Origin: Escherichia phage VB-EcoM-WM
Length of the DNA stretch: 64,000 nt
Direction: 5' to 3' (one strand)
Sequence record: PQ014731.1
How positions within the stretch are numbered: the first letter of the stretch is position 1; every line of letters begins with the position of its first letter. The notes under the pieces were generated by a model, which did not search any database, was not told the DNA's origin, and was given only the letters and a program-made list of their open reading frames with translations. Shown in pieces: positions 44,400 through 44,496 of the stretch. A program made the position numbers and the translations under genes.

Positions 44400-44496
44400 G
44401 CTAGGTAAGCCCTTTGGCAAGGGCGAGGATTTTTAATCCTGAAAATAGACGAGGTAGTCGTTGAATACATAGATGGTTCGATTCCATCACCTAGCA
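44400..44496 (+). tRNA. tRNA-like gene, long variable arm, anticodon uncertain
   Basis: Canonical acceptor (GCTAGGT/ACCTAGC), D-arm and T-arm, but anticodon arm GAGGATTTTTAATCCTG does not fold canonically (TTT, TTA or TAA possible). Confidence 0.4.

Follow-up and report, generated by a model that had tools for sequence, protein, structure and literature searches.

What is the gene at positions 44400–44496 (+ strand) of Escherichia phage VB-EcoM-WM, and does it decode anything? The positions refer to a stretch of 64,000 nt from this phage (PQ014731.1), hereafter the window, in which the element lies inside the tRNA cluster of an rV5-like Vequintavirus. Existing records give conflicting answers: in GenBank relatives, the same 97 nt are labelled tRNA-Lys, tRNA-OTHER, tRNA-TERM, ‘tRNA-???(atcc)’ or ‘hypothetical protein’, or carry no label, the BASEL annotators call the element tRNA-Lys, and the six tRNAs listed in the rV5 genome paper do not include it (PMC3606486). 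A first-pass annotation of the window described a tRNA-like gene in which the acceptor, D and T arms are canonical but the anticodon arm is not, and in which the variable region is long; as explanations it offered a Leu-like type II tRNA, a suppressor-like tRNA or a degenerate gene. Here, we describe the element as a member of a discrete and apparently undescribed family in virulent phages of Enterobacterales – our literature searches found no description of it, and Rfam 15 holds no dedicated family – and favour, with a probability of roughly 0.6, the reading that it is a functional tRNALys mimic serving against tRNA-directed defence.

The cloverleaf body stands exactly where the first-pass annotation placed it. 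The 7-bp acceptor stem pairs GCTAGGT (44400–44406) with ACCTAGC (44489–44495); the D arm (44409–44424) consists of GCCC, the loop TTTGGCAA and GGGC, which can be drawn as 4 bp with an 8-nt loop or as 6 bp with a UGGC tetraloop; and the T arm (44472–44488; GATGG, TTCGATT and CCATC) has a canonical T loop. Positions 8–9, between the acceptor and D arms, are AA (44407–44408), giving A8 and U14 where the usual tRNA has U8 and A14 – a point absent from the first-pass annotation. A single G (position 26; 44425) leads into the anticodon-like hairpin (44426–44440; AGGA(T), TTTTT/TTTTA, (A)TCCT), and another (44441), which is position 44 or, if the stem is read with 4 bp, position 43, follows it. The variable region between this arm and the T arm is indeed long, at 30 nt, and comprises an A-rich linker, AAAATA (44442–44447), a second hairpin, or variable arm, GACGAGGTAGTCGTT (44448–44462; GACGA, GGTAG and TCGTT), and a second linker, GAATACATA (44463–44471). 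The discriminator A73 is followed by CC, the terminal A not being encoded (44496–44498). The Rfam tRNA model (RF00005) matches 44400–44496 with 37.5 bits (E = 1.5e-5), above its gathering score of 29, albeit at the cost of one deleted position in the anticodon stem (position 27, as aligned by Infernal) and 26 inserted nucleotides in the variable region. The predicted fold, at −34.8 kcal/mol, is markedly more stable than those of shuffled sequences (z = −4.2).

The same architecture recurs in many other phages. BLAST searches with the element recovered 124 phage records, including Avunavirus (about 92% identity) and Seunavirus (71–74%), and repeat searches with divergent copies added about 109 further records from Henunavirus, Mydovirus, Seunavirus, the phi92-like Justusliebigvirus (Stephanstirmvirinae) and an N4-like Ithacavirus (Schitoviridae). 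Members within Vequintavirinae span five genera, and the element occurs in three phage families overall. With more variants from pattern scans of IMG/VR and metagenomes, 37 distinct sequences were collected; neither a pattern scan of one-per-species bacterial genomes nor BLAST against 5,426 complete E. coli genomes found the element.

The family is defined by a covariance model, R2, as a 7/5 cloverleaf with A8 and U14, with a stem that closes a 5–6-nt loop between G26 and G44, and with a variable region made up of an AAAA-rich linker, a variable hairpin and an ATACATA linker, all of which are present in the window copy. The 36 distinct members aligned to R2 – the set on which covariation and R2 scores are reported here – score 90–122 bits (98.7 for the window copy), while no ordinary tRNA reaches 30 bits in the 260 kb of phage tRNA clusters scanned. 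The best non-member, at 29.8 bits, is a chimera in phage V18, and each locus holds one copy. In Rfam, the Mydovirus copy has no match at E ≤ 1, and other relatives match only the tRNA model, or the tRNA-Sec model below its threshold.

Homologues with compensatory changes in other genera place the feature far beyond chance. Standard pairs fill 98.6% of the pair cells, compared with 33–47% when the partners are slid by one to three columns, and 15 of the 24 pairs show changes on both sides, including five of seven in the acceptor stem (whose cells are all paired), three of four in the D stem, two of four in the anticodon-like stem (again with 100% of cells paired) and three of five in the T stem. 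The extension of the D arm to 6 bp (with a UGGC or UGUC tetraloop across the family) is uninformative in this respect because its U:A pairs (UU/AA) never vary. An independent MAFFT alignment gives the same covariation picture. The most telling evidence is tertiary: G19 (44417) covaries with C56 (44479), this elbow pair being G:C in 25 members, U:A in 11 and broken in none, with Mydovirus-type members combining the D loop UUUGUCAA with the T loop UUAGAUU and the others UUUGGCAA with UUCGAUU. The switching between G:C and U:A means that the molecule is kept in a tRNA-like L shape.

There is consequently very little doubt that the element is a real, selected and structured RNA of a discrete family. 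That it might instead be a degenerate tRNA pseudogene, or a processing spacer with no function of its own, could be argued from its having been skipped by several annotation pipelines, including that of the rV5 reference paper (PMC3606486), and from phage V18, in which a deletion between the variable arms of tRNA-Tyr and of the element has joined the 5′ portion of the former to the 3′ portion of the latter (locus L007, 947–1043), leaving a chimera whose acceptor strands do not match. Yet compensatory changes in all four helices and at the 19:56 tertiary pair, the presence of the element in three phage families, and a 72-nt backbone that is identical between phages with strongly differing adjacent tRNA genes make such decay very improbable, and the first-pass suggestion of a degenerate gene falls with it.

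Conservation and variation are distributed very unevenly along the molecule. A8 and U14 are invariant (the latter as T in the alignment columns), as are G26 and G44 (36/36 members each). If these two G residues are taken to flank a 5-bp stem, its last pair is C:G in 17 members, U:A in 10, C·A in eight and A·G in one, around a loop of 5–6 nt (UUUUA, UUAUA, AUCAA, CAUCCA, CAUCA and others); the other reading has four pairs and a loop of 7–8 nt. Downstream of G44, all lineages continue with a nearly invariant AAAA within the AAAA(A)UA linker, then the hairpin, then the linker (G/A)AAUACAUA, whose ATACATA hardly varies (on average 0.09 pairwise differences per site), and finally the T arm. Hairpin 2 is thus set off from the core by conserved linkers of 6 and 9 nt, and these A-rich single strands are the most conserved unpaired parts of the molecule. 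The mean pairwise difference per site is 0.06–0.10 for the D loop, T loop and linker 2, 0.49 for the anticodon-like loop and 0.60 for hairpin 2. Eight variants with an identical 72-nt backbone carry four different loops (CCAUCCAG, CCUUCCAG, CCCACCAG and CCAGCCAG) and at least four unrelated hairpin-2 sequences. Even so variable a hairpin covaries within lineages: GACGA/UCGUU in the window corresponds to GACGG/CCGUU in Avunavirus, a compensatory change from A:U to G:C, CCCUCC/GGGAGG to UCCCCC/GGGGGA, and the stems GUC/GAC, GCC/GGC and UUCC/GGAA all stand under the conserved loop GAACUAACAGUA. The Thr, Leu and Tyr genes next to the element differ strongly between phages that share its backbone to the letter, from which it follows that the backbone is unusually constrained.

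Further contacts within the molecule were considered and rejected. ARAGORN calls the element (44400–44498) as ‘tRNA-???’ with a 4-base anticodon (atcc), by way of an alternative ATTTT/AAAAT helix; the hairpin that this helix replaces covaries, and the loops of relatives have no U-run with which the AAAA(T) linker could pair. Kissing between the anticodon-like loop and the loop of hairpin 2 (UCCA/UGGA, GCCA/UGGC) involves 4-nt complements that also occur in 30–45% of shuffles. A 3-bp GUA/UAC helix between hairpin 2 and linker 2, proposed by RNAalifold, shows no compensatory change in a locally unreliable alignment, and was not adopted. The tRNA-Sec alignment of Hena1 joins the two linkers (AUGUG/UACAU), a pairing absent in other lineages. 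The D arm and U-run are unlikely to act as an intrinsic terminator, the U-run being 5 nt from the stem and specific to Vequintavirus.

Which codon, if any, could such an RNA read? A canonical anticodon arm has a 5-bp stem, a 7-nt loop, U33 and a purine at position 37, and the GAGGATTTTTAATCCTG stretch admits no 5-bp stem with a 7-nt loop in any register, which bears out what the first-pass annotation said of this arm. Its best register has four of five pairs with a G·G mismatch, and the arm is drawn either as 4 bp around UUUUUAA or as 5 bp around UUUUA, and no prediction tool gives a canonical fold. Among the three anticodons that had been proposed, only TTT survives, with four of five stem pairs, U33 and A37; TTA leaves one of five pairs and TAA none. 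The canonical 5-bp, 7-nt arm occurs in no family member.

The loss of the TAA register (no stem pairs) removes the Leu-like type II tRNA, and a type II identity more generally (Leu, Ser or Tyr) sits poorly with a variable hairpin that does not stand directly against the core. Suppression or recoding – ochre here, and opal or Sec-like in relatives with a UCA loop – finds some support in relatives: those in Henunavirus are annotated ‘tRNA-sup(tca)’, their loop CAUCAAA is only one position off the tRNASec loop CUUCAAA, and the Rfam tRNA-Sec model (RF01852) gives them 39 bits. In the window, however, the TTA register has one pair in five, and stop-codon use is ordinary: the 74 open reading frames (ORFs) of at least 100 aa end in TAA (52), TGA (18) or TAG (4), no terminator is depleted, and long ORFs cover 77% of the sequence under code 11. 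A bacterial tRNASec would have an 8/5 acceptor/T branch, the anticodon UCA with U33, G73 and a score of at least 47 bits, the gathering score; the family has a 7/5 branch, the window copy has UUU and A73 and no tRNA-Sec match at E ≤ 1, and the relatives that do have UCA combine it with A33 and U73 and score 29–39 bits. Stop-codon reassignment in the window is therefore rejected, and a suppressor or recoding tRNA is extremely improbable.

At the family level, plain decoding of sense codons is unlikely as well, given that non-decodable loops occur beside canonical isoacceptors and that ARAGORN is silent on those members. In Seunavirus and Mydovirus, the loops contain UCC, or at times GCC or ACC, and position 33 is A, C or U, while these phages also carry a canonical tRNA-Gly(UCC); phi92-like phages combine a member whose loop is CAUCAAA with canonical genes for Lys(UUU) and Gly(UCC); the loops that stand beside canonical genes in the three groups are either 8 nt long or have A33; and ARAGORN leaves the element uncalled in the Seunavirus, Mydovirus and phi92-like phages examined.

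The Vequintavirus copy, for its part, closely resembles one particular host tRNA. Its arm, G AGGA UUUUUAA UCCU G, can be laid against G UUGA CUUUUAA UCAA U of E. coli tRNALys (sequence taken from the methods of PMC11464382 and the supplement of PMC11555353). The two agree at 11 of 17 nt over positions 27–43 and at 10 of 11 over positions 30–40, sharing U33, UUU, A37, A38 and the pair A31:U39. UUUUUAA is common to all eight Vequintavirus variants, and A73 is confined to this genus; outside it, most members encode CCA after U73, and one has C73. In the window, UUU falls at 44432–44434 in the only register that folds, and A73 at 44496. We take UUU and A73 to be the identity set of E. coli lysyl-tRNA synthetase (LysRS), and the window copy has both.

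Could the element, then, simply be a tRNALys(UUU) with an odd body, charged by LysRS, that does no more than boost translation of the Lys-rich genes of an AT-rich phage? The TTT register with U33, A37 and A73 fits such a role, as do the BASEL label, the use of Lys codons (73 per 1000) and the lack of another tRNALys in the cluster; indeed, neither the window nor the annotated clusters of its relatives show a canonical tRNALys. Against this stand the want of any register with a canonical 5-bp, 7-nt arm, the family-wide A8/U14 and 30-nt variable region with its conserved linkers in place of the class I body with a 4–5-nt variable loop that characterises tRNALys, and the loops of other members, undecodable beside canonical isoacceptors. 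Codon supply alone leaves this invariant, non-canonical architecture unexplained, and we regard it as distinctly unlikely to be the whole answer.

The resemblance acquires a different meaning in the light of anti-phage immunity. E. coli tRNALys(UUU) is cleaved by PrrC-type nucleases, by AriB of PARIS and by a bacterial Schlafen protein. AriB, which also cleaves tRNAThr(UGU), cuts between positions 40 and 41 in the motif U36AAUC|A41, and T5 tRNALys escapes it through U39A and A41C (PMC11464382, PMC12409363, PMC11555353, PMC13056530), of which A41C reduces cleavage (PMC12409363). The window element reads U36AAUC|C41 at this motif – the very A41C change – and adjoins a phage tRNAThr(UGU). Vequintavirus has kept the element in a reduced tRNA set whose three other named members are Thr(UGU), Tyr and Arg(UCU), and both tRNAThr(UGU) (PMC12409363) and tRNATyr (PMC11555353, PMC13096335) are reported targets of defence systems. 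In tRNATyr, it is the variable arm that retron-Eco7 and Septu cleave, and the T5 tRNATyr resists because its variable loop differs (PMC13096335). Known immune nucleases thus attack the same two regions that change fast in this family, namely the anticodon-like loop and the variable hairpin. That phage tRNAs may act as decoys or inhibitors is a possibility raised by the authors of two of these studies (PMC12409363, PMC13096335).

Under the tRNALys-mimic reading that we favour, the element would probably be transcribed together with the neighbouring tRNAs and excised by tRNA-processing enzymes, and its tRNALys-like arm would counter host nucleases that inactivate tRNALys, whether of the PrrC/RloC type, AriB of PARIS or of the Schlafen type. 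How it would do so could take two forms. One, which we put forward tentatively, is a non-decoding decoy or inhibitor that would occupy the nuclease; it is suggested by the non-canonical anticodon end of the whole family, by canonical isoacceptors in the same phages and by where the variable sites lie. The other, for which our confidence is low, is a cleavage-resistant stand-in that would be charged by LysRS and would read AAA and AAG, as suggested by the pairing of A73 with UUU, the lack of a canonical tRNALys in the examined sequence and the high use of Lys codons. More broadly, and still doubtfully, the whole family might be dedicated phage tRNA decoys – L-shaped, non-decoding by virtue of a shortened loop, and with an arm retargeted to whichever host tRNA is under nuclease attack. 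The mimicked tRNA would then be tRNALys in phages of E. coli, and the variable hairpin and loop would evolve fast under conflict.

Several points weigh against the mimic reading in one or other of its forms. The sample behind the loop invariance in Vequintavirus is too small for significance, and the coincidence of A73 with UUU is a single evolutionary event. V18, lacking the 5′ half of the element, indicates that the gene is dispensable, at least in the laboratory. The clusters are mosaic, so part of the diversity of hairpin 2 may come from recombination rather than selection. The stand-in version has to reckon with the class II geometry of LysRS, with which a long variable arm may clash, and the decoy version leaves the change of discriminator unexplained. 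To our knowledge, moreover, a dedicated tRNA decoy has never been demonstrated experimentally.

The strict conservation of the acceptor end and elbow, alongside an anticodon-like loop that is free to vary in several lineages, also invites a non-translational role of another kind. The RNA might carry an aminoacyl group for a tRNA-dependent transferase, soak up toxins that modify the 3′ ends of tRNAs, or be bound at its conserved linkers by a phage or host protein. The encoded CCA of most members and the A-rich linkers, as the most conserved unpaired parts, would suit such roles. They would not account for how closely the Vequintavirus arm copies that of tRNALys, though, and in the records inspected no conserved partner gene was seen beside the element, whose neighbours are tRNAs and small ORFs of unknown function. 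We consider this group of explanations unlikely.

By its defining features, the element is neither a canonical nor a type II tRNA, nor a tRNASec or a suppressor. It comes closest to the escape tRNAs of phages and to the non-canonical tRNAs of Mukai et al. (2017), and its architecture differs from both. Escape tRNAs – tRNALys of T5 against AriB of PARIS, tRNATyr and tRNALys of T5 and SP15 against PtuAB of retron-Eco7 and PrrC170, and tRNATyr of T6 against Septu – likewise lie in phage tRNA clusters and resemble host tRNAs that are cut by nucleases (PMC11464382, PMC12409363, PMC11555353, PMC13096335), and like them the element differs from the host tRNA at a nuclease-contact site (C41 in the AriB motif). 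They are canonical cloverleafs with few substitutions, however, whereas the element departs from that plan in its anticodon end, in A8/U14 and in a variable region of 30 nt, and has relatives in which normal decoding is impossible. Like tRNASec, the selC* tRNACys and allo-tRNAs (Mukai et al. 2017, PMC5389517), the element has an extended variable arm and a D arm with a possible 6-bp form around a 4-nt loop, and its scaffold, like theirs, serves diverse anticodons; some of those tRNAs also lie in phage tRNA clusters, and some have been proposed to be regulatory rather than decoding. Unlike the element, they have 8/4, 9/3 or 8/5 branches and normal 7-nt anticodon loops (PMC5389517), in place of the 7/5 branch, shortened anticodon end and conserved linkers flanking a variable hairpin that mark our family. 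Two other phage RNAs offer looser parallels. The rnaC and rnaD genes of T4 (species 1 and 2 RNAs) also encode tRNA-like RNAs in a coliphage tRNA cluster, stable and of unknown function; homology was rejected, as R2 gives rnaC 9.5 bits (E = 0.17) and no match to rnaD, and size and architecture differ. Blower and colleagues reportedly showed in 2012 that Pseudo-ToxI of Pectobacterium phage PhiTE – a phage that we take to be a relative of the rV5-like group – is an RNA mimic of a type III antitoxin that neutralises an abortive-infection nuclease. Pseudo-ToxI mimics an antitoxin RNA repeat rather than a tRNA, and has no sequence or structure in common with the element.

A segment of 1.2 kb around the element is 99.7% identical to Escherichia phage YP-6 and 97–99% identical to many other rV5-like Vequintavirus phages. 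About 18 GenBank records labelled ‘Campylobacter phage’ (MG0656xx, with a Campylobacter jejuni label) are 98% identical to E. coli rV5-like phages here and are probably mislabelled or contaminant genomes. ARAGORN places Arg(tct) (43931–44005), Tyr(gta) (44010–44096) and Ser(tga) (44211–44301) upstream of the element, and Thr(tgt) (44503–44578) and Met(cat) (44580–44654) downstream, all on the + strand. The last of these, tRNA-Met according to ARAGORN and most records, is tRNA-Ile (codon ATA, lysidine type) in BASEL records. A promoter-like TTGACA-17-TAATAT (43844–43872, +; 10/12 matches in a simple consensus scan) lies outside the RNA, about 60 nt upstream of the first tRNA gene. The spacer between Tyr and Ser (44097–44210, +) forms a long, near-perfect hairpin of about 25 pairs (−26.7 kcal/mol, z = −4.6), which may represent a further structured RNA, or else serve processing or termination within the tRNA operon, and that between Ser and the element (44302–44399, +) has a GTTGACC/GGTCAAC closing stem with two small hairpins inside (z = −2.2). 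A mechanically called ORF of 64 aa (44366–44560, − strand) overlaps the element, and at least one record (PMBT16) has a hypothetical protein annotated there; in view of the covariation of the RNA, it is almost certainly a false gene call.

Clusters in related phages hold further oddities. Directly upstream of the element, Mydovirus VIK251 has a tRNA with a 6-nt anticodon loop (L017:329–403; ‘???(ga)’ in ARAGORN, annotated as tRNA-Ser), and Seunavirus NINP13076 a tRNA-Ile(GAU) with C33 and U37 (L004:1419–1494). Some clusters (L047:8425–8502, L060:2057–2134, L048:1217–1294 and others) contain a 78-nt ‘tRNA-Leu(UAA)’ with no long variable arm, at a position where related phages have a type II tRNA-Leu of 86–89 nt, and a PVP-SE1-like locus (L011:5994–6079) has a ‘tRNA-???(ggca)’. 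HNH homing endonuclease genes lie inside the tRNA cluster of Raoultella phage Ro1 (L016, 9–401, directly upstream of the element) and of phage 241Ecol014PP, insertions that fit the view of these clusters as recombination hot spots.

More than 200 sequenced phages of enteric bacteria, among them therapy candidates and members of the BASEL collection, carry this element, which is unannotated in most, which annotation pipelines have missed or mislabelled as Lys, ‘OTHER’, ‘TERM’ or a hypothetical protein, and which merits an Rfam family and consistent annotation. Immunity through tRNA cleavage (PrrC, PARIS, retron-Eco7, Septu, ApeA, Schlafen) and its countering by phage tRNAs are an active topic, in which the counter-tRNAs considered so far have been near-canonical; the element is structurally distinct and strongly constrained. 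Should it turn out to be a decoy, or a resistant tRNALys of unusual build, it would represent a new counter-defence mechanism and a natural scaffold that shows how far a tRNA body can depart from the canon. A dedicated decoy class, if that is what the family proves to be, would give tRNA-targeting anti-phage systems their first RNA-only inhibitor.
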